Assembly: GCF_964355755.1 (NCBI RefSeq)
Contig: NC_092679.1
Coordinates: 24,163,432 to 24,227,431 of the forward strand
Direction: 5' to 3'
DNA: 64,000 nt
From: Antedon mediterranea
Taxonomy: Eukaryota > Animalia > Echinodermata
Shown: positions 31,160 to 64,000 of the stretch, piece after piece
How the letters are laid out: every line of letters begins with the position of its first letter
Numbering within the stretch: the stretch's first letter is position 1
Notes under the pieces: model-generated
Told to the model about the DNA's origin: nothing
Seen by the model: the letters and a program-made list of their open reading frames with translations, nothing else
The model's database searches: none
Program-made: the position numbers and the translations under genes

Positions 31160-31649
31160 ATTAGCAAAATCTATTGCATTGCATTCCACTATTCATAGTT
31201 TTCTTATGACCCACTAAAACGATAGAAACATAGAATTTCTATATATAGTATACAGTTCCATGGACTAGAGAGTTCTTTAGTCCATAGTTCTGATGACGAA
31301 CAAATTGTGCAATATCCGATAGAGACGTCAGCAACATACTCTATTTAAGAATCATTCAGGCAACAAATAGGTTCCTTTCGGCTTTGTTACAGCCGCTTAT
31401 TGTCGGAACAACAATTCACCGGAAATGTAGTAAAACCTCCAGCTAATGTAGAAACACCAACAGCTTATGTAGTAAATAAAAAATCAACAGCAGCTAATTT
31501 AGCACAGTCAACGGCTAATATGTAGTAGCGGAAGTTGCCTTCCAGCTAATGTATTTACTATCGCCAGCAAATGTAGAACATTGTATATATTAATTGACAA
31601 ACCTATGTCTAAATGTGTGCAAATGCATCTCTTGCTTAGCTATCACCTC

Positions 31650-39900: not shown

Positions 39901-42269
39901 TGTCACTTTCGTTACATTGTATTCTTTGCCCAAATCTATTTGAATCCAATCCTTTTTATATGCTTTATTATCTGAATAAAAATGAATAGCATACAAAATT
40001 TAGGTTTGTGTAATAATCCATTTATATGTAAGTAACACATTTTGTTGTGCATAAATGTTGACACTTGACCTGAAGTCTATGTGTAGTGAATGTAATTGAT
40101 ATCTGACAAGTAGATACGATAATTCACAAAATGAAGATTACGGTTGAGTGTAACAAGTGCAAAAGTGCCCTGTTTTCAAAGTATGTCCTGCTATTTTTAA
40201 TTACAAATTATTCGGAAAAGGCTTTATCTGCAAATTGACCCCCTAAAAATAAAAAATAATAATAATTGAAAACTATGCCATGTACTTCTGAAATATATTC
40301 AGTTGAAAATAAAATACTGTCAATCAAAGTAGATGTGTTCAACAGGCCAAGCGTCTATTTTCACATAGTGCTCTGACTCTCACAGCTGATCTACAGAGAC
40401 GGATAAAAGCCCTGGAAATGAGATGCTACCGCAAGATCTTGAACATCTCATATAAAGACCGTGTCACAAATGAGGAAGTCAGCAACAGGATCAAGAGAGC
40501 AATTGGACCATACAAAGACCTGCTATCAATTATGAAAAGCAAAAAGCTGGATTGGTACGGACACGTGTCGCGATCCAGTGGGCTGGCCAAGACCATCCTA
40601 CGGGGTACCGTACCAGGAGGGAGAAGGAGAGGCAGAAAGAGAAAGAGGTGGGTAGACAACATCAAGGAATGAACAGGTTTTCAGGACTCACAACGAGCTA
40701 CAGAGGACAGAAATCGATGGAGGAGGATTGTCCAAAAGTCAGCAGTGATGCCTCAACAACCCTACCAAGGGTTAGGAGACTGAACATCACGCCATTGATT
40801 GGGATAATTTGAGAGTAGTTGACAGGGAATCGGTCAGATTAAGACGCTGGGTTAAGGAATCCATCTGGATCAGGAAGACTCCCAATTTTAATAGAGATGA
40901 GGGCGGTTACAAACTCAGTCAAGTGTGGACCAATGTGTTGACCCCGTCATCTAGAGGTCAACTGTGACGTGTCACTACACTTTGAAAAAGCCAACTGATA
41001 GTTGGCGAAACGTCAGGTAAATAAAATAATCGTTATTTACTATTACTATTACGGTTGAGATATAATTAACTATTATATTTTACTACTTTGTACTATTTAA
41101 TAAAAACAAGTTTTGACTAACATGTTTGAAAACACTTTGCACCATATCCTGACACGTCATTTCCGTCTGTGAGTCTATTAGGAACACCGCTTTGAATAGT
41201 TGAGGCAGTTACTATCTTCTTATATGATAAATATGCTGAAACAAATAACATTCTCAGGTTAAATAATGTTTCGCGTCTATGAATTCAAATGTCATGATAT
41301 AAATTCGTTATTATCATGGTGTTTGATGCGTTCATTTAATTTCATCTTAATTTATTCATTCTTTCATTCATTCATTTATTTTCTTTATTTCGGATAGTAG
41401 TATACAAAACATACACACAAAAAAAATCAAAAAGAGAAACAATTTCACCAGAAATTAACAAAATAATATTAATAATAATGTTACATAAATTATATTACGG
41501 TAATTTTAACAATAAGAATAAATAAATAAAAACAGATAATTATCAATTATGGGGCTTGGCGTATTCATAAGTTTATTCAGACGACAACTAACTACTGATG
41601 GACATACATAAATATAATTTAATAATAAAAAAAACCAATAGATTTAAAAGGAAATTTAAAGTAATAAATTATAGTTTATACATAGCATACGTAGTTTCTT
41701 TTAATGAAAATGTGGTATATGTATTTGAGTAGAATTCAGAGTAATAGAAGTGTTAGGATGAATGGTACAATGTTTCTACAGGGTAATTAGAAAAAGTGAA
41801 TGTTAGTCGAAGGAAACACTTTACCAAAGTTTCAACCACAGTAAATTAAAACTTATTTCTAATTGACAACCAATAAACTCATTATCTCATTGTAATTTTC
41901 TAAATAACTACCTGATCTTATTTTTTTTACCACATTACTGAAGAAAAGAAAAGCAAATGATTATATTTTATCATTATTATCTTTATTAGAGAACATTAAT
42001 TAAACAATATTTCTTTTATCGTTTATTTTTTTTTTTAATTTTGAAATTATTATTGTTTGTCTTATTTAATCTTTTCTAATAAGCGGAACTTCTAGAAACA
42101 CATTCTTTGTGTTATACTTACCGTTCAGAATTTTACGTTAAGTATCATGATCAGCAGTGCTATATGCCTATTATAATACATTACAAAAAAACATACCTGC
42201 ATGGGCATTGAAGACATTTAAAATAAAACCACAACAAAGAAACACAGTTGCACTGGCGTAGATCTTCAT
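36962..42269 (-). CDS. Secreted F-type-lectin(F5/8C)-like, LamG/pentraxin-like and PAN/apple domain protein, about 467 aa, 6 exons
   Basis: Exons 42269-42197 (signal peptide MKIYASATVFLCCGFILNVFNAHA), 41235-41122 (RLTDGN...CFQT), 39971-39879 (WIQIDLGKEYNVTKVTIIN), 39066-38833 (RLRDARITIG, GRYVVL, LQMCQIRVY), 38608-38000 (WIFLAVTYN, LRIG, FIGKVAMLQLYDRALNESEI), 37242-36962 (CAKMC...CCKGF...CIL). All introns are phase 1. Confidence 0.85.
37349..37470 (-). mobile_element. Diverged family B Penelope pLTR fragment after (TA)n
   Basis: AAATTCAAAGGAAAATTACTGAAAA...GATCTCAATGGAGATACAAAA matches 11836 onward. Confidence 0.8.
37715..37920 (-). mobile_element. Diverged copy of the tRNA-containing element (tRNA-like part ~37719-37790)
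   Basis: Colinear with 15240-15475; ends in (TA)n. Confidence 0.8.
40370..40782 (+). mobile_element. RTE (BovB-like) LINE 3' fragment
   Basis: TLTADLQRRIKALEMRCYRKILNISYKDRVTNEEV...KLDWYGHVSR...GRRRGRKRKRWVDNIKE. Confidence 0.85.
40783..41035 (+). mobile_element. Penelope-like family C 3' fragment with a degenerate hammerhead
   Basis: Translates HAIDWDNLRVVDRE...RWVKESIWIRKTPNFNRDEGGYKLSQVW (PLE endonuclease C-terminus). Followed by TTGAAAA-A-GCCAAC-tgata-GTTGGC-GAAACGTC at ~40980-41016. Confidence 0.78.
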
Positions 42270-42825
42270 TATTGCTTGAATACTGTTAGATAAATGATAT
42301 GTGTCTACAAGCTCGCACGCAGTTCTACTCAACTTACTTTGATATCTGTATTGTTATATATTAGGTATTTGTAATTCGTTCATGTTTATTAAATCGACTG
42401 AGAATCGTGGACATGCATTAATAGTGTTTTCAGTTTCCGTCCTACGAAATGCTAACCAATCAATATATGAAAATGAATTTCATATTAAAAAAACAAGAAA
42501 AAAAATTACAATAGTAACAATGCTTTACCTTGATGGTGATGTTGCAGCAAAAATGCACCGTCACTCCTTAGATGCAAATGCCATACTTACTGAATTAGTA
42601 ATGTATAATTTAACCTTCAATAAAAAAAATAGCTATAACGATTATCCACGCGTATGATGCAGCTCAAACGTCTTATAACAAACATCTCATCCAACCCCTC
42701 CATTTCTTCCTAACAAACGAACACAATCACACGTTTCATTAAACCAGAACATTTTTATTCATGATCAGAATGATTATTTCTCGAATACGAACATAAAGCA
42801 CAAATAAATTTAAGATAGCAACTAA

Positions 42826-43170: not shown

Positions 43171-46100
43171 TCACATCACATCTTCCACGTGGTTCTCCAG
43201 TTTCTGGTATGAAAGGCCACTATGCTTCCTTAAGCCAGTAATGAAAACAATACATCCTATTGTGAAGACAATCAGACTTAGGACCATTAGCGTTGCTGGA
43301 ATTGCGGGAAATATTCTCTTTGATTTTGACTCTGAAAAAATAATTTTTTTTCTTTAATATAACATGGTACCATACACATATTACATTGTTTAAATGTTTG
43401 CATGGCGAATGAACACTGGTGAAGTTAGGTTTGCGGCACACCATGTGTTTTCCAAAAGAAAATAAAGTATGGTTGTTGAGAATATCTTGATGTATCGGTT
43501 GTTCTGTTACTACCGTCTTCTGGAAAAATGCTAGGCACACCATCTTTTACTTTTGGGAAACACAAAACAAACGTTATTAAACACAAATATAATTACGATG
43601 AAATTTGCATTGCAATTAGAAGCCTACCATACCACAATGTAAAAACGTTGGTAAGCAGCAGTTTTTGCTTAGTTTAATACACATTATGATATAGCAATAT
43701 AGCATAAGTCAGTATTGGGTTTTGTCAGTACCTTTAGCTTCGAGTTCAATGTTTGAATTTGTATCTGGCCGTTTTAACACCAAAGGTCCAAGTTCAATTG
43801 AAATGCTATCAGACAATTTATTTGGTACAGTGACGTCACGGCGTTGTCGTTGGTTACAGTTTCTAGAGCATCTCCAATCACTATCATTGCAGATGGACAA
43901 TAGACAATGAACAAACACCTGCATATAAAGATGATTTTTAAACAGGATTTTACAATCGAGTGTAGTTCACATAACGCAGTTTAAAAAATAGCTCAAATTA
44001 GGTCGAATTAATTTGTAAATCAGTTTAAATAATAATTTTTTTGCATAAAATTTCCAAGATCAAGGACTTATTGCATTTACCATAATGTGAAGATGGCTCA
44101 GTTGGGTCTTACATGTGCTTCATTCTTCCTTTCACATACTTTTGCTATGCTAATGATCGAGATAAGCCCGATATTCGCACGCTCAGAATTGCGTTGCACT
44201 GAATTGAATTTAATAGTTGTCACAGGTTAAAATCAGACTGACTGACTGGGTCAAAACCAAACAAATATATGATTTTTTAAAGATGTCCCTTGAAACACAA
44301 AAATGAAGGTCAAAATATTCTAAATTTAAATTGGCCATATCAAAGTAATATTAAAGTTATTCACTTTAACTCGAAAATTCGAGCCAAAAACAACAAGTTT
44401 ACGTAATTAACAGGTAAATTAATTTGATTACATTTCATCTGGAAAATCGTCGTGACCGAGTAAACAAAGATTTCAAACCACGAGTATGCATTATGCATGA
44501 TGCTAATTAGGATTGTTTACAACTCGTAAAGGTTGAAAAGGTGTTTTAACACAGATCACGAGGAAGTTTTATGATTATGTATACAGAGTAGCCAAACGAG
44601 CGCGTTGCATTATGAGATATGTTTTGATAAAAACTTTGACTGGAAGTCAAAGTTATTTTTTGAACAAAAAAACGTCTGTATTTTAGTTAAATTATTTTTT
44701 TTCCGACTAATTTTTTGTGAAAGTTAATAACTATTATGATACTTCAAAATGACCCACTTTTTTTCGAAATCTTTTTTTTTTTTTTTGGAATTAGTCAAAG
44801 GGACAATACATCTTTAAGCAATACAATTACATTTTTATATGTAGTAAACATAATAGATAATTACACTTCATTTATAATTAGTTTCATGTTATTATTTTAC
44901 GGTTTGGCATGACAAATGTGTTAACTGACTGCAAATAAGTGGAATTGATACTCCTATTTTGCACTGTTTACCGTAAATTAATCCAAGGCTAAGCGCCCCC
45001 ACCCCCCCCCCCCCACCCTCTCTGCGAAAAGTCTAATGAAAAAAAGGATGTGAGGCGGGGTATGAGTATTCCTGATAGTGATAGTGATACATTGTTAAAG
45101 CAGGGAGTTGTTATTAGAGGTTAAAGTGTAGGAACTTTATTATGTTTGAGCATGTACAGATCTGGCTCATTAGCATAACAAAAGAAAGCGAAAGTCAAAT
45201 GCCCAAACGAGCTAGCGTTATATATTGATAATAGTTGCAGCTCCTCATACTGTAGAACAATCTTCCCACCCAATCTAGAATTACCTTCACTCTGTTTTCT
45301 TTTTGTTTCATTATTATTATTATTTTAAGCGAGGGACAATCTGCTGAGTGCTATTTAAATTATATTTAACAATTCTTTCTTTTTCATCTATCGTGATGAT
45401 ACGATATGTTTGTCTAATTTAATAATAATTCTCCTAATCTACTGATTCATACCGTTGAGTATTCGCCGCTGAAGCCAAACGTTTCAAACGAAAAGAATGC
45501 ATGAGATAAATCTCCGTAAGCTGATTTTCCATCAAAACTGACAGTCGAGTCTACACCACAACTACAAGAGAAAAAAAATTATTGAATGTATCGGTTTCCA
45601 ATAAATATAAAGAGTGAATTGTTTGCCTTTTGTTGAACTCAATTAAACATATCGATATTTTATCTTAAATTAATTCGTCAACGACCTGCTGACTTATTCA
45701 AACTGAAAAGCTAACATACATTAATTAGTTAGTTTGTTCAACATAAAGTGAAATCCACACTTAAAAAATATTTATTGTAGTAAAATATATCTTAAAGATG
45801 TATTGTCCCCCTGAAAAAATAATTCAGAAAAACTTATTTTTTGAATATTCCATTTTAATGTAACATAATAGTTATCCACTTTGACCAAAAATTGGATCGA
45901 AAAAAAAATGTATTTACCTGAAAAAAATGTAATTTAAAGCAACAAATTGTCAAATTGGCTGCCAGCCAATGGATTTTTGGTTGAATTTTGACATTTTACA
46001 AGTGAACATATTATTTTTTCTATGAAAACATATTCAAAGTCTGATTTCATTAATCTTAATTTTTCATGTTTTTGGGGAACAATACATCTTTAAGTAATTA

Positions 46101-49100
46101 TCAGTTTAAAAATATGAAAATACAAACATACAGTATGTTTTAAAAATTCTGTTCGGTATCATGTGTTGAAATTAATTAATTACGGCTTTGATAGTCACTT
46201 GGATATCTATAAGTTATCATCATTTATAATCAAATTCTTCAATTACCTATTTTTAATTAAGTCATATTTAGGCTGAGCATCAGGGTCTGGGTTTGGTGTG
46301 GCTTTGCACGAATCGACAAACAGAACCATATCGTTACTAAAAGTCTTCACACTCGCACCAATAAACACTTTACTTCCAAGCTCCAATTCGATTGGATACT
46401 GCCAGCTCGGGTATGGAGTAGAATAACTGCTGTCTGTATACAGCTCCATTGCGAATGTAAAGTTGTCATGTTCGCGTTTTAGGAAATCTTTTTGTGTTCC
46501 AACTGGGTCAAAACTAACGGATGAGTGACCTGCATTTTTAAGTTCACACTCGACCGTAATGCGACTGTCATCTCTCCTGTATACCGTTGAATCGCCTTCG
46601 TTTGATACGATCACTTGGTTTTGGTAAGTTGTCGAAATCAATGTCGACTAGAAAGAAAATATAAAGACATACACGATGTTGTATACAAGATGTTCTTTAA
46701 AACAACAAAAGGCCCATACAAACACTGTAAGTAAAATGTAGCAAGCGATTTAATCTCATCTCTTCCATACATTTTTATAGATTTATATTATTTGTAAAAT
46801 TAATGATATAGTCCCGTTTGGTGATATTCTGTCATTGTTCATGTGAGTATAATTCTTTTTGTTACCTTTATTGTTGTTTTGCATTGGTCGTATCTAGTAT
46901 ATAAATACAGCCAATACATTCCGTTGCGATACGTGTATCCCATCATGCCACACGTCGGGTCTATAAAGTGTGCGGTGCTATTACTTCCAAGTGAAGCCGC
47001 GTCAAGGTAAACTGTCATGTATGAATTACTGCATACAATATCTGGAAAAAGTGTTGTTAATGTAAAAGAATAGAACATAATAATAATTAATTAATGAAAA
47101 CTCATATTAGAACATGGAACCGTAAACAAAATTAACCATTTGATGTCCTTTTGTTTACCGTACCTCAATCCAACAATTGACACATACGAGTTCGTTTACT
47201 ACGTTGTTTTAAAGCAGAAATCATGAATAATTAATTATCAGTATCAAACTAACCTGTACATTCATACTGATGTAAAATCATGTCGAAATCGAAGATTTTG
47301 AATGAAGCAATGTAGCCTTTTTTTAAATGATATCTGATGTAGGCTTACAAGTTACTAAACGTTCAAACAGTGTACACATTTCCATTCTGTAAACTTACCG
47401 GTTTCTATATATTCAGGGGTTGTAATAATTGATTGAGTGGTAGGCAACACTGTACTCTGTGATTGATCTGGAAATCAAATGAAAAAAACATTAGTATAAA
47501 ACACTTGGTATTTTTGTATAAAACACTTAGTATTTTTGTATAAAACACTTAGTATTTGTATAAAACACTTAGTATTTGTATAAAACACTTATTATTTGTA
47601 TAAAACACTTAGTATTAGTATAAAACACTTAGTATTAGTATAAAACACTTATTAATTGTATAAAAACACTTATTATTTGTTAAAAAACTTAGTATTAGTA
47701 TAAAACACTTGGTATTTTTGTATAAAACACTTAGTATTTTTGTATAAAACACTTAGTATTTGTATAAAACACTTAGTATTTGTATAAAACACTTATTATT
47801 TGTATAAAACACTTATTATTTGTATACAACACTTAGTATTAGTATAAAACACTTATTATTAGTATAAAACACTTATTAATTGTATAAACACACTTATTAT
47901 TTGTTAAAAAACTTAGTATTTGTATAAAACACTTAGTATTTTCTTTTAACTTTGCTTTCTAAATCTGTCAACTATAACCCAAGTAAAACCATAATGATAC
48001 TATGGGAAAACAACATTTCATCAATGTTTTTAAACGTTATTATTTACTAGTTGACAATTATTTATGTAATTTATTTTTGTTTCTACAATATTTCATAACA
48101 AACTTCACATAACTTAGCCATGGTTATAATGTTCAAATAAGCATTCAACAACAAAAATTAAACACGAGTAAATGTATAGGCTACGATAAATTGCCGTGTT
48201 TATGTATATACCTAGACCTATATGAGGCTTTTAATATAAACACAGTGATGTAAAAGCTTGAGACATATTCAACATTATTCAAGGTTCTAAGGAATAATTT
48301 AGTCCATAATCCCGACGCGAAAAGCAATAAAAAAACTGGTATTTTATTAGTAAATTTTATTTTATTTTATTTTTATTTTATTTTATTCAATCGAAACCAA
48401 CAGCGATAATTACCGCCACTAACAGGTTTGATACAAACAAAGCCAGGACAGTTTAAAGCAGCTTGATTGGTCCTGACATTGATCAAGGGCTTCTCTCGTC
48501 CAGTGCCCACCTTGACCAGCGGTCTGAGGCAGATACTAGATACAGGGGCTGCCATAAGAGTCAGCAGTGCTGATTTCAAATGCCTAACGGGACCCCAGCT
48601 CCGTATACAGCACCCGCTATTCCTAGATGGTCTCCCATCCAAGCTCTAACCAGGCCCAACGTTGCTTAACTTCGGTGATCTGAGGAGAACCGGTGTTTCA
48701 ACGTGGTAAAGCCGTAATTATAATTACATACTGTATATTATTATATTCAATATATGATAATCCGTAAACAAATGTACTATTTATTTATGAGCTATTTAGA
48801 AGAAATAAAAGTGAACAGAGATCCATAAAAAAAAGCTATTCTGTCAGTAAACAGGTATTCGTTTGTTGCACTCAAATAGAAATATTAATTTGTTTATCAA
48901 TCGTGTATCAGAATGGTTATATTTGTATACCTCCCTGGTTAAACCAAGCCAATATAACAACAGAATGTTGAGCTTCGTTAGTTCAAAGTGTGTATGTGTG
49001 GTTGCTACACGATCTGTTGCACGCCCCTAAACTTTTGATTGATTTCCGATTGGTCAATTGGCTTTCTCAAATGTTTGGTTGTATAATGATAATGATGAAT

Positions 49101-52100
49101 AATGTACACAATTTGTCGCAGCCAATCATAAGATCAAAGTTTATTTATTTATTTATTATCATCTTTACTGAGGGTAGCCTATCCAGTTCCTAATGGAACT
49201 GATCATTTAGGGCCCTCGAAGTATTGTAATAATGCCCTATATTGGCAAGGCGAGCTCAGTATCATAATATTTTTACTACGTTTGTGTAAATTGTAACAGA
49301 GTAAATGAAAAATAAAGTTACCACTTGTTGTTTCTATGTTGTTTGATGTTGTAGCCCATTTAGTAGAAACCAAGACGGTAGTAGAATCTTTATAGACGAG
49401 AAAAACGAGAAAATGGAAAACTCTTCACGTAGTTAAACTTAAATACTTGGAATTATTTATTGGACATGAACGTTATTTTGTCTTTAGTGACATCACCGAG
49501 AGAGACAAGTAGTTGATGTCAATGACGACATCATGCCACACGTGGATCGATGAAATGTGCAGAGCTCACGTCAATGCGTCAATGTAAGCTGTCATGTAAG
49601 AATTACTGCATACAACATTATATTACAGCAGTTTAAAACAGGGAGTTGTACTCCCTGGTTTAAAACATTACATTAAGGAATGTTTGACTTACCTGTTGTT
49701 CTTGACCAATCAGTTTTCGAAACGGTATAACCGGTAGTAGTGACGTCAGGTACAACTACACACAAACAGTTGAATTAGATATCATAAATCAAAGCAATGA
49801 TGGGGAAGAAAGAGAGAAAGTATTTTAAGAGATATATAATTTTAATATCAAAGAAGTTAATGCCAGATAACTTGTATTGCAGATATGATCGAGTTGATAT
49901 CATATATCTATTTTACAGTTTAAAATTATATTTTGAACACAAATGTTTAAAATTGGCAGGCAATCTATTTATTTTAGTGCAATTCACAAAATTTACATAA
50001 TTCATTTCGAAAAGAAGCTTCCTCTTCAGTTTGCAAAAGTAATCTCAAAAAGACAAAGTAATCTTGAAGAAAACCATCTTGAAAAGAATGCCACCCAAGA
50101 GCACTAAAAAAGAATCCTATGGGCTTCTTTTTGAGGTTTTACGGTACCGAATATAAAATATGTTGTTAAAAAGCCATTTAAACTGTGTGTATGTTTATTG
50201 TTCTAATTGGTATGATACATGTTATAACTAACAGTACATGGACAAATAATATTGAACAAAACTTACCAGGATAATCAGAGCATGCGCCCTCGCTAATATA
50301 AACATCGTCGACAGCAACTATTGCTGTATCACCGGTGTCACCATATACTCTACCGTCAATTCTCAATAAAGAATTAAATCTATTCACAAGGTTAACAGTA
50401 ACACTTGCAGATTTCCATCCTGGAATGTTGTCATGATATTTGTTGAAAATGCTGGTGGAATAGTAGTTGTTATAATATTGATCGATGTAAATGTATTGGT
50501 ATGAATTTCCACTCATATAGTAATGAAACCTGGCACACGCTTCTTCCCACCTGTCTGGTAGATATGGGCTTTTAATGTAGCCAAATTTGTATCCATTTTC
50601 ACCATTGTCTTTTCCAACATAAATGTAATAATCATCTGAAAATATTTATAAATTAAATGAATATGTAAAATGGTTTCAGTGATTTTTTAATTTCGAGTTA
50701 TATTTAGTTATTATTCTTTATTTTTGACATTTGCTTTACTAAGGTATTATACATAAGTAAATTTCGAACAATAATTACATTCTGAAAATAGCTTATCTTG
50801 GTCAATGAGTGTTAGCATCCAGCAAAGAAACTGATAAAGAAGTTAAAGCTAATTAGGTACTAATTTCTAATTTTCAAGAAATACTTTATATAGGCCTATA
50901 CGCATGCGTATAAACCAATGCTTTCGATCTATTCTATTTTTCAGAATATATAATGATATTTCTATTTCCATTAAAAATAATAATATTTAAATTTCTTATT
51001 AATAAACACAATTATGTAGTTAAAAAAATGTGCATTTAATTGAAACGGTATAATAATTTCTAACATAAATACCAAAAGTCTAATCTATATATCACTTTTA
51101 TTCAATTCAATAACATCTATGTAACATCTCGTGGCCAAAGGCCAAATTGCTAGTTACAAATTACATAAAAATTGTACCTATTAAAATTAAACATCCACAG
51201 AGACATAAAAATGTATAAAATAGAAAACAGAATAAAAAAAAAGAATCTGATCACTTTACAATATCATGCAGTAAGCATTTATAACATCTCAGAAAACATT
51301 ACTTGATAATTTATTTATTCATCAGATTAATCTTGTTACCTGATCCTGAATAACGGTTTCCTAAATCGTCAACATTATAATTTCTTTCTGAGGATCTTGT
51401 CCATAGATTGTCACTATAATGAGTCCATCCAGAAAATCCATTGTTGAAATCAGAACAAAAACCATCTGAGAATAGAATGAATTTATAGGAAAATGTCAAA
51501 GCGTAAGAATTCAAATTGCTTCATTCTTGTTTTGTCCGCGTAGGCTCATAATCCCAAAACGGCGATATTACCAATATACATACAGAATAATAAGGCATAA
51601 TGAAAACTAATTAAATTGAATTCACCAAGTTTATGTTTTACCAAATGTACGAAAAACAATGATTTAAATGTTAAAACGTTCAATTAAAATGTAGGTATTC
51701 TTTGTTCAAAATGATTTCCTTATTCATAGGATTCTCTATATCTCCACATTATGGCATTACCTAGCCGTATCATAGGCAAATTATGTAAAACAGTGCCTGT
51801 GTTATGTTAAGGTTAGGGTACAAGATGTCATAAGTTATATGTGACAATGTATTACAGAATTAGCTATGATACAGTACTACTGTGCAAATTATTAATACAG
51901 TGAATCGGTTACTTTATTATTAGTGTATTAGTTTAAGAAAAAGGAGTGATGTGACTACGAGTCACCTTACAAAAATTAAATGTTATAATAAACGATCGTT
52001 TAATAGTGCGTACTATTGCAAGCTATGTGACCCACATTCGTCCAATCAAATGACAGGAATTTATTTAGGTGTTATATATAATACGGTATATCTTATAACT

Positions 52101-54377
52101 ATATGATTCCTACCTGGAGCGTCAGGGTAGACAGATACTTTAGCCTGAAATCCTCTATACATCGCACTGCTATCTGTACTGAAAACTACTGTTATTGCGT
52201 TAATAGTTGATATGGTTTTTGGCGGCGTATTAGAACCGCCGAATCTACCAATCATGTCTCCATCACTGTATATAGTTACATAGTCGCAGCATCCTTCAAG
52301 ATCAAAATCGTAGAATTCAACAGACAGCAAACTTCTGACGTGAGTAGTGAATGTCCATTCGATGTACTGGTTGTTTCCATATTGATTTGGATATCCAGGA
52401 GATGATAGGAATTGAGTATCATTCCCACAGAGAAATGGTTTTGTTTCTAAAGAAGGTGCTGAGAAACATTTTTTAATATATTGATTAATTCAAAGGAAGA
52501 CACCTTCGGGAGCCACAACAAGTATCTCCTTAATAGGGGTGTCCCCTGAATAGAAGTCAGGGGACACCCTTATTAAGGGATGTAGGCCTTTTCGCGGAAA
52601 AAACAAACAAACAAATATACCAAAATTAACAATAATTGATTGACACAAGAAATTGTCCCAAAATAAGTTTCCCCGTTCTATTAGTGTTAAAACATATATT
52701 GGCCCTCAATTTTGGGAATGTATCCACGAAGCGTTTAACAAAAGAAAGAATGCAAATAGTACATTTATGCGATAAATTGCCGTGTTCGTGTGTAAATACG
52801 GTATATTTTACCACTATGCTAAATGAGAATTTAATATAAAACCGTGATTCAACAGCCAGCTAGCGCCGGCATATTCAACTGTATTAAGTGTCTGAGGAAT
52901 AATTAAGTTCATAGGCCCTATATCTACTGCAAAAAGATAAAGTTAAAAAATAAGTTATTATATTTATCATTAAATTATAATTATATATTAAAATCTCGGT
53001 TGGGACGACTCATTGTCACAGTACAGGTTTCCTAAAATTATTCCTTGAATTCTATGAAATAAAAATTGGTATATACTTATTTTAAGAAGAATATTTCTTG
53101 AAACAAGAATTCTCTAAAATAGAATTTTTATTTAATTTAAGAAAAATATTGCTTGAAGTAAATATATTTTTACTTGAGCATCTGGGGTATTCTTGGTAAG
53201 AGTAGTATTTAGTACTGATTTCAGACAAAAATATAAAAATTATATACTGCTCAAAACAAGAATGTCTTAATTGAATAAAAAAACATTCACATATCTTGGT
53301 AATAATAATTATTGTTTTGAGAATTGTTATTTCTTACTACGAATTATTTTCCTGATTACAATTTTTTAGATTCTTGGTAAGAATTGTCGGATTCTAAATT
53401 TGTAAGTTAAAAAAGTCTTTTTATTCATTGGGGAAAAATAATATTAACAATACTTACATTGTACTTGTAAACTAGTTGTTCCTTGTTCTTGACCATCACT
53501 AGTAGAGAATACTGCACACAGATACGACATAGCATCCTCTTTAGTGACATTATGAATTATTAAACCAGCTTTACCCTGGAAAGTATCAGCAACCTGGAGC
53601 TCCATACGTGGTTTGAATTCAGGAGTCACTTCACTTCGTACTACCAAATTAGTAATTTCGCTTTCATTGACTCGAGTCCACGAGATATCAACCCCCGTCG
53701 CACTGGTTGGCGTGTAGTCGCATGCCAGTAACGCGTCTGAATTCTCGGGAAATACTTGCACATCACTTATTGTGATCTCTAGTGCAGCAGTCATAGGCAC
53801 TATGGTAAATAAAGAAAATAAAATATTGATATTCAATTTCATGACAATATCAATTTTGAAATTCAATTCGTCATTATTAAAATACTACCGAACTTACCAA
53901 ATGTCCCACTGTATAATATGTGTTTATATATAAATCCAAAGGCAAATTACTGAAAAATGACAATGCTGTGGGTATCAATGGCTGGATCTCAATAGAGATA
54001 CAAAAAAAATGGCGAAAAGCTAAATCAAAACGTATACACAACTATGTAGATTTCATGAAGAAATTATTCGCTTTATCGCCAGTAATAACATGGTTGTCTT
54101 GTATCAACAAATATGTTTTTGATATTTTAGTGTATTAATTGTGTTTGTATAATATATACATTTTATACAGTGGCACATTTGGCAAGTTCGGTAGTATTTT
54201 AATAGTTCGAAATTAAAACAGTAAACACAAGTTAATTAAAAAGAAAAGTATAGTTAAAACATACAACAAAAATCTAAAATAATATTAAAAACGCTTGCTT
54301 ATAAATACATATTGTAAACATTTCTTACCTGTGGCATAGGACACACAGTACAACAAAAGCAGCGTACTGTAACACAT
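43171..54377 (-). CDS. Ig-CUB-MAM-(S/T-rich)-ZP domain type I membrane protein, about 820 aa, 13 coding exons
   Basis: Exons 54377-54329 (signal peptide), 53799-53458 (V-type Ig), 52458-52114 (CUB: SSPGYPNQY, DLEGCCDYV, FSTDSS, RGF), 51465-51340 and 50635-50267 (MAM: CARFHYYMSG, VAVDDVYISEGAC), 49755-49693, 49387-49322 and 47467-47399 (T-rich), 47041-46866, 46647-46247, 45561-45453 and 43918-43732 (ZP, furin site RQRR, ELGPLVL patch), 43331-43171 (TM plus YQKL tail). Phases are consistent and the total is 2463 nt. Confidence 0.9.
44281..44813. mobile_element. Kolobok-type MITE (TTAA TSD)
   Basis: TTAA-AGATGTCCCTTG ... CAAAGGGACAATACATCT-TTAA; shares termini with 45796-46089. Confidence 0.7.
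45796..46089. mobile_element. Kolobok-type MITE (TTAA TSD)
   Basis: TTAA-AGATGTATTGTCCCC ... GGGGAACAATACATCT-TTAA. Confidence 0.75.
47491..47941. repeat. 19-22-bp minisatellite (GTATAAAACACTTAGTATTT) with a ~205-bp higher-order duplication
   Basis: Variant order in 47491-47695 is repeated from ~47696. Confidence 0.92.
48353..48719 (-). mobile_element. 5S rRNA-derived SINE (SINE3-type): 5S head ~48719-48606, unique body, (TAAAA)n tail
   Basis: Minus strand TACGGCTTTACCACGTTGAAACACCGGTTCTCCTCAGATCACCGAAGTTAAGCAACGTTGGGCCTGGTTAGAGCTTGGATGGGAGACC...GGTGCTGTA is a diverged 5S rRNA. It has no terminator and reads on into a ~220-bp body and an A-rich tail. Confidence 0.88.
49528..49617 (-). pseudogene. 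Degenerate duplicate (pseudo-exon) of the ZP-N exon
   Basis: VVCSNSYMTAYIDA...SAHFIDP..CGMM versus the functional IVCSNSYMTVYLDA...TAHFIDPTCGMM (47041-46866); contains indels. Confidence 0.75.
53875..54204. mobile_element. MITE with ~45-bp TIRs carrying a nested family B Penelope pLTR fragment (~53932-54032)
   Basis: TATTAAAATACTACCGAACTTACCAAATGTCCCACTGTATAA ... TTATACAGTGGCACATTTGGCAAGTTCGGTAGTATTTTAATA. Confidence 0.8.
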
Positions 54378-57300
54378 TTCTTACCTGTGGCATAGGACAC
54401 ACAGTACAACAAAAGCAGCGTACTGTAACACATTTCTTACCTGTGGCATAGGACACACAGTACAACAAAAGCAGCGTACTGTAACACATTTCTTACCTGT
54501 GGCATAGGACACACAGTACAACAAAAGCAGCGTACTGTAACACATTTCTTACCTGTGGCATAGGACACACAGTACAACAAAAGCAGCGTACTGTAACACA
54601 TTTCTTACCTGTGGCATAGGACACACAGTACAACAAAAGCAGCGTACTGTAACACATTTCTTACCTGTGGCATAGGACACACAGTACAGCAAAAGCAGCG
54701 TACTGTAACACATTTCTTACCTGTGGCATAGGACACACAGTACAACAAAAGCAGCGTACTGTAACACATTTCTTACCTGTGGCATAGGCTACACAGTACA
54801 ACAAAAGCAGCGTACTGTAACACATTTCTTACCTGTGGCATAGGACACACAGTACAACAAAAGCAGCGTACTGTAACACATTTCTTACCTGTGGCATAGG
54901 ACACACAGTACAGCAAAAGCAGCGTACTGTAACACATTTCTTACCTGTGGCATAGGACACACAGTACAACAAAAGCAGCGTACTGTAACACATTTCTTAC
55001 CTGTGGCATAGGACACACAGTACAGCAAAAGCAGCGTACTGTAACACATTTCTTACCTGTGGCATAGGACACACAGTACAACAAAAGCAGCGTACTGTAA
55101 CACATTTCTTACCTGTGGCATAGGCTACACAGTACAACAAAAGCAGCGTACTGTAACACATTTCTTACCTGTGGCATAGGACACACAGTACAACAAAAGC
55201 AGCGTACTGTAACACATTTCTTACCTGTGGCATAGGACACACAGTACAACAAAAGCAGCGTACTGTAACACATTTCTTACCTGTGGCATAGGACACACAG
55301 TACAACAAAAGCAGCGCACTGTAACACATTTCTTACCTGTGGCATAGGACACACAGTACAGCAAAAGCAGCGTACTGTAACACATTTCTTACCTGTGGCA
55401 TAGGACACACAGTACAACAAAAGCAGCGTACTGTAACACATTTCTTACCTGTGGCATAGGACACACAGTACAACAAAAGCAGCGTACTGTAACACATTTC
55501 TTACCTGTGGCATAGGACACACAGTACAACAAAAGCAGCGTACTGTAACACATTTCTTACCTGTGGCATAGGACACACAGTACAGCAAAAGCAGCGTACT
55601 GTAACACATTTCTTACCTGTGGCATAGGACACACAGTACAGCAAAAGCAGCGTACTGTAACACATTTCTTACCTGTGGCATAGGACACACAGTACAACAA
55701 AAGCAGCGTACTGTAACACATTTCTTACCTGTGGCATAGGACACACAGTACAACAAAAGCAGCGTACTGTAACACATTTCTTACCTGTGGCATAGGACAC
55801 ACAGTACAACAAAAGCAGCGTACTGTAACACATTTCTTACCTGTGGCATAGGACACACAGTACAACAAAAGCAGCGTACTGTAACACATTTCTTACCTGT
55901 GGCATAGGACACACAGTACAACAAAAGCAGCGTACTGTAACACATTTCTTACCTGTGGCATAGGACACACAGTACAGCAAAAGCAGCGTACTGTAACACA
56001 TTTCTTACCTGTGGCATAGGACACACAGTACAACAAAAGCAGCGTACTGTAACACATTTCTTACCTGTGGCATAGGACACACAGTACAACAAAAGCAGCA
56101 TACTGTAACACATTTCTTACCTGTGGCATAGGACACACAGTACAACAAAAGCAGCGTACTGTAACACATTTCTTACCTGTGGCATAGGACACACAGTACA
56201 ACAAAAGCAGCGTACTGTAACACATTTCTTACCTGTGGCATAGGACACACAGTACAACAAAAGCAGCGTACTGTAACATATTTCTTACCTGTGGCATAGG
56301 ACACACAGTACAACAAAAGCAGCGTACTGTAACACATTTCTTACCTGTGGCATAGGACACACAGTACAACAAAAGCAGCGTACTGTAACACATTTCTTAC
56401 CTGTGGCATAGGACACACAGTACAACAAAAGCAGCGTACTGTAACACATTTCTTACCTGTGGCATAGGACACACAGTACAACAAAAGCAGCGTACTGTAA
56501 CGCATTTCTTACCTGTGGCATAGGACACACAGTACAACAAAAGCAGCGCACTGTAACACATTTCTCACCTGTGGCATAGGACACACAGTACAGCAAAAGC
56601 AGCGCACTGTAACACATTTCTCACCTGTGGCATAGGACACACAGTACAACAAAAGCAGCGTACTGTAACACATTTCTTACCTGTGGCATAGGACACACAG
56701 TACAGCAAAAGCAGCGTACTGTAACACATTTCTTACCTGTGGCATAGGACACACAGTACAACAAAAGCAGCGTACTGTAACACATTTCTTACCTGTGGCA
56801 TAGGACACACAGTACAACAAAAGCAGCGCACTGTAACACATTTCTTACCTGTGGCATAGGACACACAGTACAACAAAAGCAGCGTACTGTAACACATTTC
56901 TTACCTGTGGCATAGGACACACAGTACAACAAAAGCAGCGCACTGTAACACATTTCTTACCTGTGGCATAGGACACACAGTACAACAAAAGCAGCGTACT
57001 GTAACACATTTCTTACCTGTGGCATAGGACACACAGTACAACAAAAGCAGCGTACTGTAACATATTTCTTACCTGTGGCATAGGACACACAGTACAGCAA
57101 AAGCAGCGTACTGTAACACATTTCTTACCTGTGGCATAGGACACACAGTACAACAAAAGCAGCGTACTGTAACACATTTCTTACCTGTGGCATAGGACAC
57201 ACAGTACAACAAAAGCAGCGTACTGTAACACATTTCTTACCTGTGGCATAGGACACACAGTACAACAAAAGCAGCGTACTGTAACACATTTCTTACCTGT

Positions 57301-60300
57301 GGCATAGGACACACAGTACAACAAAAGCAGCGTACTGTAACACATTTCTTACCTGTGGCATAGGACACACAGTACAACAAAAGCAGCGCACTGTAACACA
57401 TTTCTTACCTGTGGCATAGGACACACAGTACAACAAAAGCAGCGCACTGTAACACATTTCTTACCTGTGGCATAGGACACACAGTACAACAAAAGCAGCG
57501 TACTGTAACACATTTCTTACCTGTGGCATAGGACACACAGTACAACAAAAGCAGCGTACTGTAACACATTTCTCACCTGTGGCATAGGACACACAGTACA
57601 GCAAAAGCAGCGTACTGTAACACATTTCTCACCTGTGGCATAGGACACACAGTACAACAAAAGCAGCGTACTGTAACACATTTCTTACCTATGGCATAGG
57701 ACACACAGTACAACAAAAGCAGCGTACTGTAACACATTTCTTACCTGTGGCATAGGACACACAGTACAACAAAAGCAGCGTACTGTAACACATTTCTTAC
57801 CTGTGGCATAGGACACACAGTACAACAAAAGCAGCGTACTGTAACACATTTCTTACCTGTGGCATAGGACACACAGTACCGCAAAAGCAGCGTACTGTAA
57901 CACATTTCTTACCTGTGGCATAGGACACACAGTACAACAAAAGCAGCGTACTGTAACACATTTCTTACCTGTGGCATAGGACACACAGTACAACAAAAGC
58001 AGCGTACTGTAACACATTTCTTACCTGTGGCATAGGACACACAGTACAACAAAAGCAGCGTACTGTAACACATTTCTTACCTGTGGCATAGGACACACAG
58101 TACAGCAAAAGCAGCGTACTGTAACACATTTCTTACCTGTGGCATAGGACACACAGTACAACAAAAGCAGCGTACTGTAACACATTTCTTACCTGTGGCA
58201 TAGGACACACAGTACAACAAAAGCAGCGTACTGTAACACATTTCTTACCTGTGGCATAGGACACACAGTACAACAAAAGCAGCGTACTGTAACACATTTC
58301 TTACCTGTGGCATAGGACACACAGTACAACAAAAGCAGCGTACTGTAACACATTTCTTACCTGTGGCATAGGACACACAGTACAGCAAAAGCAGCGTACT
58401 GTAACACATTTCTTACCTGTGGCATAGGACACACAGTACAACAAAAGCAGCGTACTGTAACACATTTCTTACCTGTGGCATAGGACACACAGTACAACAA
58501 AAGCAGCGTACTGTAACATATTTCTTACCTGTGGCATAGGACACACAGTACAACAAAAGCAGCGTACTGTAACACATTTCTTACCTGTGGCATAGGACAC
58601 ACAGTACAACAAAAGCAGCGTACTGTAACACATTTCTTACCTGTGGCATAGGACACACAGTACAACAAAAGCAGCGTACTGTAACACATTTCTTACCTGT
58701 GGCATAGGCTACACAGTACAACAAAAGCAGCGTACTGTAACATATTTCTTACCTGTGGCATAGGCTACACAGTACAACAAAAGCAGCGTACTGTAACATA
58801 TTTCTTACCTGTGGCATAGGACACACAGTACAACAAAAGCAGCGTACTGTAACATATTTCTTACCTGTGGCATAGGACACACAGTACAACAAAAGCAGCG
58901 TACTGTAACACATTTCTTACCTGTGGCATAGGACACACAGTACAACAAAAGCAGCGTACTGTAACACATTTCTCACCTGTGGCATAGGACACACAGTACA
59001 ACAAAAGCAGCGTACTGTAACACATTTCTCACCTGTGGCATAGGACACACAGTACAACAAAAGCAGCGTACTGTAACACATTTCTTACCTGTGGCATAGG
59101 ACACACAGTACAACAAAAGCAGCGCACTGTAACACAATTCTCACCTGTGGCATAGGACACACAGTACAGCAAAAGCAGCGCACTGTAACACATTTCTTAC
59201 CTGTGGCATAGGACACACAGTACAACAAAAGCAGCGTACTGTAACACATTTCTTACCTGTGGCATAGGACACACAGTACAACAAAAGCAGCGCACTGTAA
59301 CACATTTCTTACCTGTGGCATAGGACACACAGTACAACAAAAGCAGCGCACTGTAACACATTTCTTACCTGTGGCATAGGACACACAGTACAGCAAAAGC
59401 AGCGTACTGTAACACATTTCTTACCTGTGGCATAGGACACACAGTACAACAAAAGCAGCGTACTGTAACACATTTCTTACCTGTGGCATAGGACACACAG
59501 TACAACAAAAGCAGCGTACTGTAACACATTTCTTACCTGTGGCATAGGACACACAGTACAACAAAAGCAGCGCACTGTAACACATTTCTCACCTGTGGCA
59601 TAGGACACACAGTACAACAAAAGCAGCGCACTGTAACACATTTCTCACCTGTGGCATAGGACACACAGTACAACAAAAGCAGCGTACTGTAACACATTTC
59701 TTACCTGTGGCATAGGACACACAGTACAACAAAAGCAGCGTACTGTAACACATTTCTTACCTGTGGCATAGGACACACAGTACAACAAAAGCAGCGTACT
59801 GTAACACATTTCTTACCTGTGGCATAGGACACACAGTACAACAAAAGCAGCGTACTGTAACACATTTCTTACCTGTGGCATAGGACACACAGTACAACAA
59901 AAGCAGCGTACTGTAACACATTTCTTACCTGTGGCATAGGACACACAGTACAACAAAAGCAGCGTACTGTAACACATTTCTTACCTGTGGCATAGGACAC
60001 ACAGTACAGCAAAAGCAGCGTACTGTAACACATTTCTTACCTGTGGCATAGGACACACAGTACAGCAAAAGCAGCGTACTGTAACACATTTCTTACCTGT
60101 GGCATAGGACACACAGTACAACAAAAGCAGCGTACTGTAACACATTTCTTACCTGTGGCATAGGACACACAGTACAGCAAAAGCAGCGTACTGTAACACA
60201 TTTCTTACCTGTGGCATAGGACACACAGTACAACAAAAGCAGCGTACTGTAACACATTTCTTACCTGTGGCATAGGACACACAGTACAACAAAAGCAGCG

Positions 60301-63300
60301 TACTGTAACACATTTCTCACCTGTGGCATAGGACACACAGTACAGCAAAAGCAGCGTACTGTAACACATTTCTTACCTGTGGCATAGGACACACAGTACA
60401 ACAAAAGCAGCGTACTATAACACATTTCTTACCTATGGCATAGGACACACAGTACAACAAAAGCAGCGTACTGTAACACATTTCTTACCTGTGGCATAGG
60501 ACACACAGTACAACAAAAGCAGCGTACTGTAACACATTTCTTACCTGTGGCATAGGACACACAGTACAACAAAAGCAGCGTACTGTAACACATTTCTTAC
60601 CTGTGGCATAGGACACACAGTACCGCAAAAGCAGCGTACTGTAACACATTTCTTACCTGTGGCATAGGACACACAGTACAACAAAAGCAGCGTACTGTAA
60701 CACATTTCTTACCTGTGGCATAGGACACACAGTACAACAAAAGCAGCGTACTGTAACACATTTCTTACCTGTGGCATAGGACACACAGTACAACAAAAGC
60801 AGCGTACTGTAACACATTTCTTACCTGTGGCATAGGACACACAGTACAGCAAAAGCAGCGTACTGTAACACATTTCTTACCTGTGGCATAGGACACACAG
60901 TACAGCAAAAGCAGCGTACTGTAACACATTTCTTACCTGTGGCATAGGACACACAGTACAACAAAAGCAGCGTACTGTAACACATTTCTTACCTGTGGCA
61001 TAGGACACACAGTACAACAAAAGCAGCGTACTGTAACACATTTCTTACCTGTGGCATAGGACACACAGTACAACAAAAGCAGCGTACTGTAACACATTTC
61101 TTACCTGTGGCATAGGACACACAGTACAACAAAAGCAGCGTACTGTAACACATTTCTTACCTGTGGCATAGGACACACAGTACAACAAAAGCAGCGTACT
61201 GTAACACATTTCTTACCTGTGGCATAGGACACACAGTACAGCAAAAGCAGCGTACTGTAACACATTTCTTACCTGTGGCATAGGACACACAGTACAACAA
61301 AAGCAGCGTACTGTAACACATTTCTTACCTGTGGCATAGGACACACAGTACAACAAAAGCAGCATACTGTAACACATTTCTTACCTGTGGCATAGGACAC
61401 ACAGTACAACAAAAGCAGCGTACTGTAACACATTTCTTACCTGTGGCATAGGACACACAGTACAACAAAAGCAGCGTACTGTAACACATTTCTTACCTGT
61501 GGCATAGGACACACAGTACAGCAAAAGCAGCGTACTGTAACACATTTCTTACCTGTGGCATAGGACACACAGTACAACAAAAGCAGCGTACTGTAACACA
61601 TTTCTTACCTGTGGCATAGGACACACAGTACAACAAAAGCAGCATACTGTAACACATTTCTTACCTGTGGCATAGGACACACAGTACAACAAAAGCAGCG
61701 TACTGTAACACATTTCTTACCTGTGGCATAGGACACACAGTACAACAAAAGCAGCGTACTGTAACACATTTCTTACCTGTGGCATAGGACACACAGTACA
61801 ACAAAAGCAGCGTACTGTAACATATTTCTTACCTGTGGCATAGGACACACAGTACAACAAAAGCAGCGTACTGTAACACATTTCTTACCTGTGGCATAGG
61901 ACACACAGTACAACAAAAGCAGCGTACTGTAACACATTTCTTACCTGTGGCATAGGACACACAGTACAACAAAAGCAGCGTACTGTAACACATTTCTTAC
62001 CTGTGGCATAGGACACACAGTACAACAAAAGCAGCGTACTGTAACGCATTTCTTACCTGTGGCATAGGACACACAGTACAACAAAAGCAGCGCACTGTAA
62101 CACATTTCTCACCTGTGGCATAGGACACACAGTACAGCAAAAGCAGCGCACTGTAACACATTTCTCACCTGTGGCATAGGACACACAGTACAACAAAAGC
62201 AGCGTACTGTAACACATTTCTTACCTGTGGCATAGGACACACAGTACAGCAAAAGCAGCGTACTGTAACACATTTCTTACCTGTGGCATAGGACACACAG
62301 TACAACAAAAGCAGCGTACTGTAACACATTTCTTACCTGTGGCATAGGACACACAGTACAACAAAAGCAGCGCACTGTAACACATTTCTTACCTGTGGCA
62401 TAGGACACACAGTACAACAAAAGCAGCGTACTGTAACACATTTCTTACCTGTGGCATAGGACACACAGTACAACAAAAGCAGCGCACTGTAACACATTTC
62501 TTACCTGTGGCATAGGACACACAGTACAACAAAAGCAGCGTACTGTAACACATTTCTTACCTGTGGCATAGGACACACAGTACAACAAAAGCAGCGTACT
62601 GTAACATATTTCTTACCTGTGGCATAGGACACACAGTACAGCAAAAGCAGCGTACTGTAACACATTTCTTACCTGTGGCATAGGACACACAGTACAACAA
62701 AAGCAGCGTACTGTAACACATTTCTTACCTGTGGCATAGGACACACAGTACAACAAAAGCAGCGTACTGTAACACATTTCTTACCTGTGGCATAGGACAC
62801 ACAGTACAACAAAAGCAGCGTACTGTAACACATTTCTTACCTGTGGCATAGGACACACAGTACAACAAAAGCAGCGTACTGTAACACATTTCTTACCTGT
62901 GGCATAGGACACACAGTACAACAAAAGCAGCGCACTGTAACACATTTCTTACCTGTGGCATAGGACACACAGTACAACAAAAGCAGCGCACTGTAACACA
63001 TTTCTTACCTGTGGCATAGGACACACAGTACAACAAAAGCAGCGTACTGTAACACATTTCTTACCTGTGGCATAGGACACACAGTACAACAAAAGCAGCG
63101 TACTGTAACACATTTCTCACCTGTGGCATAGGACACACAGTACAGCAAAAGCAGCGTACTGTAACACATTTCTCACCTGTGGCATAGGACACACAGTACA
63201 ACAAAAGCAGCGTACTGTAACACATTTCTTACCTATGGCATAGGACACACAGTACAACAAAAGCAGCGTACTGTAACACATTTCTTACCTGTGGCATAGG

Positions 63301-64000
63301 ACACACAGTACAACAAAAGCAGCGTACTGTAACACATTTCTTACCTGTGGCATAGGACACACAGTACAACAAAAGCAGCGTACTGTAACACATTTCTTAC
63401 CTGTGGCATAGGACACACAGTACCGCAAAAGCAGCGTACTGTAACACATTTCTTACCTGTGGCATAGGACACACAGTACAACAAAAGCAGCGTACTGTAA
63501 CACATTTCTTACCTGTGGCATAGGACACACAGTACAACAAAAGCAGCGTACTGTAACACATTTCTTACCTGTGGCATAGGACACACAGTACAACAAAAGC
63601 AGCGTACTGTAACACATTTCTTACCTGTGGCATAGGACACACAGTACAGCAAAAGCAGCGTACTGTAACACATTTCTTACCTGTGGCATAGGACACACAG
63701 TACAACAAAAGCAGCGTACTGTAACACATTTCTTACCTGTGGCATAGGACACACAGTACAACAAAAGCAGCGTACTGTAACACATTTCTTACCTGTGGCA
63801 TAGGACACACAGTACAACAAAAGCAGCGTACTGTAACACATTTCTTACCTGTGGCATAGGACACACAGTACAACAAAAGCAGCGTACTGTAACACATTTC
63901 TTACCTGTGGCATAGGACACACAGTACAGCAAAAGCAGCGTACTGTAACACATTTCTTACCTGTGGCATAGGACACACAGTACAACAAAAGCAGCGTACT
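54322..64000 (-). repeat. 56-bp satellite (about 173 copies, open at the window end) whose unit is the ATG/signal-peptide exon plus the 5' splice site of the ZP gene
   Basis: Minus-strand unit ATGTGTTACAGTACGCTGCTTTTGTTGTACTGTGTGTCCTATGCCACAG|GTAAGAA encodes MCYSTLLLLYCVSYAT plus a phase-1 donor. Confidence 0.97.

Follow-up and report, generated by a model that had tools for sequence, protein, structure and literature searches.

Which splice donor does a cell use when the end of a gene's first coding exon, donor included, stands in a row of more than a hundred nearly identical copies? The question is raised by a 64,000-nt stretch of the genome of the crinoid Antedon mediterranea (contig NC_092679.1; the whole stretch is called the window hereafter). 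On its minus strand, a predicted gene for an immunoglobulin (Ig)-CUB-MAM-ZP protein is preceded by a 56-bp tandem array, the unit of which appears to be the leader exon of that same gene. The answer favoured below, on the precedent of smaller arrays of the same type, is the most upstream donor.

The array occupies positions 54322–64000 and contains 172 full units and, at the window edge, a truncated one. Tandem Repeats Finder called it at 54313–64000 (173.0 copies, 98% matches), and cutting at a fixed anchor gave 173 anchors, with a spacing of 56 in all 172 intervals and no indels. Since the repeat runs off the window end at 64000, the copy number (at least 173) is a lower bound. The units are ~99% alike (mean distance to the commonest unit, 0.98%), their differences being built from 12 distinct changes. 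The 16 open codons and the GT of the donor are kept in each of the 172 full units, and the ATG in 163 of them. Three donor 9-mers were found, CAG/GTAAGA (155 units), CAG/GTGAGA (14) and TAG/GTAAGA (3); the first of these fits the U1-type consensus CAG/GTAAGT at eight of nine positions, equalling or exceeding 10 of the 11 donors of the gene model. Each unit also holds a second, out-of-frame ATG, and 347 ATGs are present across the array. An earlier note, made from the letters of the window, had described about 173 tandem cassettes of 56 bp, each with ATG, leader and donor, and hence a large array of 5′ splice sites. The anchors, the repeat call, the GT in 172 of 172 units and the 155 CAG/GTAAGA donors bear out both descriptions, the array being a row of identical strong 5′ splice sites.

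Two of the 12 distinct changes destroy the ATG and have spread to nine units, while the absence of changes in the GT is expected by chance (P = 0.65); the comparison across array units gave no sign of selection on either the ATG or the GT. Among 20,000 single-base shuffles of the unit, 168 contained a strong donor, seven of which also had an in-frame ATG and three a hydrophobic stretch as well. No match to the unit longer than 14 bases was found elsewhere in the window (positions 1–54300). The array has a GC content of 43%, against 25–35% in its flanks and ~30% in the surrounding DNA. It contains no AATAAA or ATTAAA, and no Rfam family was detected in the portion scanned, up to position 56000. 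A coding repeat was ruled out, the longest open stretch over the six frames being 55 codons. The parts of the array referred to below are:

54322–64000, minus strand: tandem array; unit composed of the leader exon's final 52 coding bases (E-M-C-Y...A-T plus G) followed by intron bases +1 to +4, phased at the microhomology.
54329–54377, minus strand: exon part of the last, gene-proximal unit, from ATG to donor; a leader-exon copy with a predicted pseudo-donor.
55834–58409, unstranded: 46-unit block with a variant pattern; exact repeat at 61378–63953, period 99 units.
61378–63953, unstranded: the 46-unit block again, truncated at the window edge.

The repeat unit and the leader exon

A 12-exon minus-strand model starting from one unit gave a frame of 798 codons with no stop, in which all 11 introns are GT-AG and the frame is unbroken in all 11 downstream exons. 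Spliced to the acceptor AG at 53801–53800, the phase-1 donor at 54329/54328 keeps the frame, as the earlier note had proposed for the acceptor at 53800, and the 798-codon frame over 12 exons upholds that proposal. The unit has the features of a leader exon, namely those of a short first coding exon with a phase-1 donor, in frame with a domain exon. The hydropathy of its core is 2.49 over eight residues; the Arg at residue 2 comes only from the organism B and paralog sequences described next.

Four of eight sequencing runs were compared with the window. X1 may be the window's own sample, and hence not independent, X8 comes from another sample and study, and X5 and X7 are two samples of a related species, organism B. 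Contigs of organism B differ from the window by ~3–4% (for example, 49 letters in 1,152). A single unit was found in a 1,086-bp X7 contig (record 13), which matches 54307–54380 with three differences and has loose ends of 255 or more unique letters on both sides. In X5 (records 9–11), a window-like intron 1 (54116–54339) and a second intron form both lead to one contig that covers the unit and then continues into unique sequence. The depth of the unit in organism B (36 and 123) is like that of single-copy neighbours (26–29 and 63–117). A paralog detected in X1 also has one leader copy, with nine differences in 51 letters and a donor kept as GTATGT; its likeness stops three bases into the intron, such that the exon is conserved and the intron is not. 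Finally, the Anneissia relative P0005, one of seven Ig-family relatives examined out of 150 listed matches, has a hydrophobic N-terminus that starts M-R-V and lies directly ahead of the same Ig domain, with its V-Q-S aligning with the T-A-A that precedes the Ig start. These three lines (organism B, the paralog and P0005) identify the repeat unit as the leader exon of the Ig-CUB-MAM-ZP gene. The check for a single-copy exon in paralogs and orthologs, suggested by the earlier note, thus came out in favour of a leader exon, with one copy in organism B and one in the paralog.

Behind the same single leader (at 54307), organism B showed two intron-1 sequences, both present in X5 at about equal depth, with only the second present in X7. 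X7 gave no cover at 54085–54249, its leader contig continuing into a different intron, which X5 (record 10) shows as well. Judged by depth, this second form is more likely an allele than a paralog; the unit is single either way.

Four codons ahead of the unit ATG, organism B has another ATG in the same frame (M-R-A-E-M-C-Y), and the X1 paralog starts M-M-R-V-D-L-C-Y, with a CTG at the position of the unit ATG; both readings were made by hand from loose ends, and rest on one contig per run. The sequence GTTTTC(G/A)AA precedes the first ATG in both. These starts place the conserved start codon just upstream of the repeat unit, and the internal units would therefore not be whole first exons. The idea that each unit could serve as a first coding exon, with an array of competing start codons, is hence not sustained: the conserved start is outside the unit, and the paralog does without the unit's ATG.

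The host gene

The domain order of the model is Ig-CUB-MAM-ZP-transmembrane (TM), with CUB, MAM, ZP-N, ZP-C and TM present in the same order as in crinoid DMBT1-like proteins. Pfam searches on single exons detected Ig V-set, CUB, MAM and ZP-C. Downstream of the array, the model consists of:

53800–54328, minus strand: intron 1, unique part, 529 bp; acceptor AG at 53801–53800.
53458–53799, minus strand: exon 2, Ig V-set domain preceded by the last part of the predicted signal peptide (Pfam V-set, E 7.6e-12; 86% to P0001).
52114–52458, minus strand: exon 3, CUB domain (Pfam, homology).
51340–51465, minus strand: exon 4, start of MAM (model and homology).
50267–50635, minus strand: exon 5, remainder of MAM (Pfam, homology).
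49693–49755, minus strand: exon 6, Thr-rich linker (splice signals and frame only, without homology support).
47399–47467, minus strand: exon 7, Ser/Thr-rich linker (splice signals and frame only, without homology support).
46866–47041, minus strand: exon 8, start of ZP-N (model and homology).
46247–46647, minus strand: exon 9, end of ZP-N and start of ZP-C (Pfam, homology).
45453–45561, minus strand: exon 10, ZP-C (model and homology).
43732–43918, minus strand: exon 11, end of ZP-C and a basic RQRR, which we take to be a furin-type site (model and homology).
43171–43331, minus strand: exon 12, transmembrane helix, short tail and TGA stop (model and homology).

Exon searches (Ig and others) returned nine database matches, all from the crinoids Antedon mediterranea and Anneissia japonica (best, 86–91%). 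The CUB, MAM, ZP and TM exons matched DMBT1-like crinoid proteins (XP_071963925.1, XP_033121892.1; 48–89% by exon), while the Ig exon matched CEACAM/LSAMP-like Ig proteins (XP_071958655.1, XP_033096787.1; 84–87% and 48–54%). P0001, P0002 and P0005 are Ig-only membrane proteins of the CEACAM/LSAMP-like family; P0154, P0156 and P0157 are DMBT1-like CUB-MAM-ZP proteins, with Ig absent from their Pfam lists. In none of the Pfam lists of the nine matched proteins did Ig occur together with CUB, MAM or ZP, nor did the three exon searches (two, one and six matches; weak for long proteins) find a database protein with the full Ig-CUB-MAM-ZP layout. From these sequence matches, the host gene looks like an exon-shuffled chimera, in which the leader and Ig exon of a CEACAM/LSAMP-like family were joined to a DMBT1-like CUB-MAM-ZP gene. 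In the named relative, members of the two families derive from separate contigs, of 28.6 and 25.0 Mb. Organism B contigs span the CUB and Ig exons (52381–53555, in X5 and X7), a bridge that would place the fusion before the split from organism B. The locus is also a trap for annotation: the nearest database Ig-family models lack this leader, and P0001 starts at a Met in exon 2.

Several further repeats were noted in the introns. Intron 1 holds, at 53875–54204, inverted 61-bp arms around a very high-copy element, the core of which is also found at 11820, 13990, 14168 and 37331. In intron 6, a degenerate copy (76%) of the first part of the ZP-N exon lies at 49529–49618 (minus strand), and a full-length 5S ribosomal RNA match (74 bits) at 48602–48719 (minus strand) is followed by ~200 bases and an (AAAAT)n tail; the latter element is presumably a 5S-derived short interspersed element. 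A 20-bp AT-rich minisatellite of 22 copies (47490–47941) ends ~20 bases before the exon 7 acceptor.

Presence and length of the array in sequencing data

In X1, the depth over the unit was ~3,000–3,350, against ~26 in the flank (ratio ~116–129); in X8 the corresponding values were ~176–215 and 3–5 (ratio ~36–68). Contig and word depths are not copy numbers, and are taken here as an order of size only. The array is real and not an invention of the assembly, with about a hundred copies in the organism of the window and one in organism B.

X8 is labelled 'RNA?', and behaves as thin genomic DNA: the intronic piece 49917–50130 is covered, a paralog contig extends three to four bases beyond both ends of exon 4, and its high-copy repeats stand at ~0.24 of those of X1. 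None of the eight runs was listed as an RNA holder, and no exon-exon joint occurred among the 15 of 82 joints shown or in the later listing; neither observation bears on expression. The X8 record that reaches furthest across a unit junction has 24 and 18 letters on its two sides, and none has 31 on both; the head-to-tail order in this sample rests on that 24/18-letter record, an eight-letter loose end and the depth. None of the X1 contig ends listed gave the upstream flank of the array.

The length of the array is a separate matter. The X1 depth corresponds to ~135 units per flank depth (117, corrected for the 148 of 173 units that carry the counted words). This fits at least 173 units only if the flank depth represents both chromosomes and the other allele is shorter; if the flank represents one chromosome, it is too few. 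Three differing letters in the X1 flank contigs (records 7 and 8) suggest that two alleles are present. Within the array, the 46-unit block recurs without any difference 99 units (5,544 bp) away, reaching the window edge, which would reflect either a recent unequal crossover, as a late large step, or over-extension by the assembly. It is possible, although we think it unlikely, that the assembly has inflated the length of the array. That the whole array is an artefact, with no large array behind it, is scarcely credible: the exact 99-unit repeat and the X1 depth, too low if the flank is a single chromosome, would agree with it, but the unit stands at tens to more than 100 times the flank depth in two samples of two studies, and at about one in organism B. 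Shorter common variant motifs were also seen inside the array, at periods of 49, 50 and 94 units.

The share of the commonest variant, its site not listed, differed between X1 and X8, at 22% in one and 53% in the other, and after scaling to two high-copy repeats the array depth of X8 was about one third that of X1 (0.076 versus 0.24). Variant shares and relative depth, the latter not being a copy number, hint that array length varies between animals.

Origin of the array

The repeated piece extends from the E codon to intron position +4, and the two ends of the unit carry look-alike arms with seven exact bases, or 12 of 13 with one gap:

54368–54380, minus strand: upstream microhomology arm GAAATGTGTTACA, codons E-M-C-Y, repeated in every unit.
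54313–54324, minus strand: downstream microhomology arm GAAATGT-TTACA, in the intron at +5, one base shorter than the exon arm.

Contigs of organism B align across both arms (54307/54310–54380) with three differences, the places of which are not listed. Such arms at the ends of a unit are the layout expected for microhomology-mediated tandem duplication, in which a single-copy segment between short look-alike arms duplicates and then expands (PMC13167724). The present arms differ by one base, and the copy number far exceeds the 1x–3x states described there. The minisatellite was probably born at this 12–13-nt microhomology. A first duplication by slippage between the 13-nt arm (codons E-M-C-Y) and the 12-nt arm at intron +5 would have been followed by growth through unequal exchange, after the split from organism B. 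The authentic copy of the leader would then be expected at the far end of the array, beyond 64000. If so, a large minisatellite arose from 12–13 nt of microhomology within a few percent of sequence divergence.

Predicted consequences for splicing

The promoter, the 5′ untranslated region (5′-UTR) and the true start (M-R-A-) would lie beyond the window, ahead of the first unit. Frames were modelled from the ATG of the first unit, without the upstream start, which would add four codons to each. Donor 1 gave the full frame, donors 2 and 3 frames of 37 and 65 codons, both ending in exon 2, and donors 4–7 a 54-codon frame ending in unit 3. In this model, full protein from the first ATG requires the most upstream donor, which lies outside the window. 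As later donors yield frames of 37–65 codons, the extra copies could only subtract output; any leak to the next copies would produce short frames, likely to be degraded.

Precedents exist for the use of the first of several identical donors. In human F7, only the most upstream of 5–9 identical donors is used, and in the lamin B2 and PDGF genes only the authentic donor is used, while 6-16 and CBS use two more donors (PMC1557585). The lancelet 'mirage' minisatellites are reported to leave splicing undisturbed and the mRNA normal (PMC3087553, PMC3902484). The cap-binding complex helps U1 to bind the cap-proximal donor (PMC4889658, citing Lewis 1996); together with donor choice in the 5′-to-3′ direction, it would favour the first donor here. 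By analogy with these cases, we consider it rather likely that the cell still splices from the most upstream copy, the remaining copies forming a long, mostly harmless first intron. The clean downstream frame, the absence of AATAAA and ATTAAA from the array and the lack of any sign of selection on its copies agree with this reading. Tuning by copy number, or silencing, as entertained in the earlier note, is by the same precedent less likely than no effect.

Several points weigh against this reading. The published cases with transcript data have 3–26 copies, a range greatly exceeded by 173 copies spread over 9.7 kb or more; the human cases, moreover, follow exons that are called internal or are not said to be the first. 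By simple arithmetic, more than half of the mRNA would be lost if each copy leaked 0.5%, and two laboratories obtained opposite results with globin constructs carrying duplicated donors (PMC1557585). The M-R-A start attributed to the window's organism is taken from organism B. The unbroken frame is also compatible with recent silencing: under rough assumed rates, a dead gene would be free of lesions with P = 0.22 at 0.5% divergence, and with P = 0.002 at 2%.

The strongest alternative, a possible one that we nonetheless hold to be unlikely, is that the array diverts splicing or blocks transcription, lowering or abolishing the protein. The acceptor at 53800 might pair with nearby copies, the last donor being 529 bases away, leaving a first exon of up to 10 kb with many upstream ATGs; or the repeat might be packed in silent chromatin, in which case longer alleles would express less. 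The intact GT of every full unit and the close consensus match of the 155 donors, at least equal to most of the gene's own, agree with diversion, as do the short frames (37, 65 and 54 codons) that result from each of donors 2 to 7. The extra donors used in 6-16 and CBS (PMC1557585) provide a precedent, and the lower relative array depth of X8 is a hint, although no copy number, of the length variation that this explanation calls for. Against it, the downstream frame and all 11 acceptors are intact, the array was found in two samples of two studies, and the published cases, as far as described, mostly splice normally. In a more elaborate version, the array would act as a length-variable brake, particular to this species, on a chimeric Ig-ZP surface protein: 'first donor wins' would fail at more than 170 donors, every further copy would draw some of the splicing into short frames destined for loss, and array length would set the dose from full to none. 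We regard this version as doubtful.

Removal of the array in steps, in which the first donor is joined to the AG of a later unit and the same donor is thereby rebuilt (recursive splicing, or the AGGT route), is very improbable. All 172 full units do present AG/GT, a junction shared with recursive splice sites and AGGT introns, and AGGT duplications can be precisely spliced out (PMC3443670). However, the unit CAG scored −5.8 in an acceptor model, lower than any of the 11 real acceptors (leave-one-out range, −2.7 to 6.5), and ranked at the 47th percentile among 331 intronic AGs, and so does not resemble a usable acceptor; the model is rough and small, having been trained on the 11 acceptors of this gene.

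Equally hard to credit is transcription starting inside the array, with many units acting as alternative first coding exons with their own ATG and donor: the ATG and donor of the last unit plus exon 2 do open the 798-codon frame with its hydrophobic N-terminus, and 163 of 172 units keep the ATG, but the units contain neither 5′-UTR nor promoter sequence from the single-copy form and are missing its three initial codons, a CTG stands at the unit ATG in the paralog, and ATG-destroying changes have spread to nine units. With 347 ATGs in the array, that of the last unit would sit behind hundreds of others in a transcript begun upstream.

The array is an unusually hard natural test of 5′ splice site choice, since a first coding exon is here followed by no fewer than 173 strong donors that are identical. 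Every wrong donor destroys the frame, unit-specific variants distinguish the copies, and the single-copy relative serves as a control. Normal expression of the gene would extend the cap-proximal rule to a copy number well over ten times that of F7; otherwise, a slippage-prone exon end can switch off a gene while leaving its coding frame untouched.

Comparison with known systems

The array shares three features with donor-spanning ('mirage') minisatellites: its unit spans an exon-intron boundary, is locally derived and keeps its splice signals. A fourth, variation in length, is hinted at by the X1 and X8 data. The human examples comprise F7 intron 7 (37 bp, 5–9 copies), 6-16 (25 pseudo-sites), CBS intron 13 (15–20 copies), lamin B2 (100 bp, 10–15 copies) and PDGF intron 4 (81 bp, 16–18 copies) (Borensztajn 2006, PMC1557585). 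As in these, the first unit crosses the exon-intron boundary and the donor is repeated unchanged through the intron. Here, in contrast, there are at least 173 copies, 52 of the 56 bases of the unit are exonic, the exon is the first coding one, and the unit includes both an in-frame Met and a predicted signal peptide's hydrophobic core. More generally, internal tandem repeats have been reported at exon-intron boundaries in human duplicated genes (PMC2812944).

Lancelet mirage minisatellites have been described in Adh3, the globins BflGb6 and BflGb9, troponin C and PGBD5 (PMC3087553, PMC3902484). They share with the present array the tandem copies of an exon-intron boundary, live-looking splice signals, homogenised units and a marine invertebrate deuterostome as host. 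The globin cases have 1–6 units, whereas the array described here is far longer and more uniform (99%), belongs to an echinoderm and is polarised by a single-copy relative. In avian 'exon stuttering', the edge of a coding exon and its splice site are likewise copied in tandem into the adjoining intron, with 1–44 copies (median 4), spans of up to 23.5 kb and strong length variation on GC-rich dot chromosomes (Hron 2026, PMC12954441). The present case has at least 173 copies and crinoid relatives, and lies in DNA of ~30% GC, unlike the GC-rich dot-chromosome setting.

The repeat type is therefore already known; what appears new is its size, a unit that takes in nearly all of a leader exon, in-frame Met included, and the single-copy sister state. 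That state, found in a close relative, fixes both the direction of change and the breakpoints of the array. Narrow literature searches, weak in that most subscription papers were outside their reach, found no published case alike, including any repeat of a signal-peptide exon.

Other features of the window

The neighbouring gene at 36962–42270 (minus strand) has an ordinary single leader exon near 42200–42270, and LamG-like and PAN domains. A rhodopsin-type G protein-coupled receptor sequence at 32987–33777 (minus strand) runs over two frames, and probably reflects a pseudogene or a frameshift. An UNC5-like protein is presumably encoded at 27449–31192 (minus strand), where there are exons for a TM segment, ZU5 and Death domains. 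The minus-strand exons at 17000–25214 are taken, from their motifs, to encode a leishmanolysin-type metalloprotease; three of them searched singly gave no Pfam match. On the opposite strand inside this gene (18861–21107, plus strand), two related frames are 79% alike in DNA, one of which has 362 codons, a hydrophobic start and end, and no Pfam match.

Two mobile elements were also recognised. An unbroken 1,031-codon frame at 7542–10637 (plus strand), with endonuclease and reverse transcriptase domains, represents a young long interspersed element. The element at 12186–15153 (minus strand), which we assume to be Penelope-like, has a 584-codon frame with a YRDD motif, a GIY-YIG frame nearby and tandem terminal repeats; Pfam detected GIY-YIG in the second frame only. 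Other tandem repeats occur at 1–751 (21 bp, 35 copies), 2641–2918 (54 bp, five copies), 4308–6224 (184 bp, 10 copies, partly palindromic) and 15117–15865 (364 bp, two copies, with a transfer RNA match in each).

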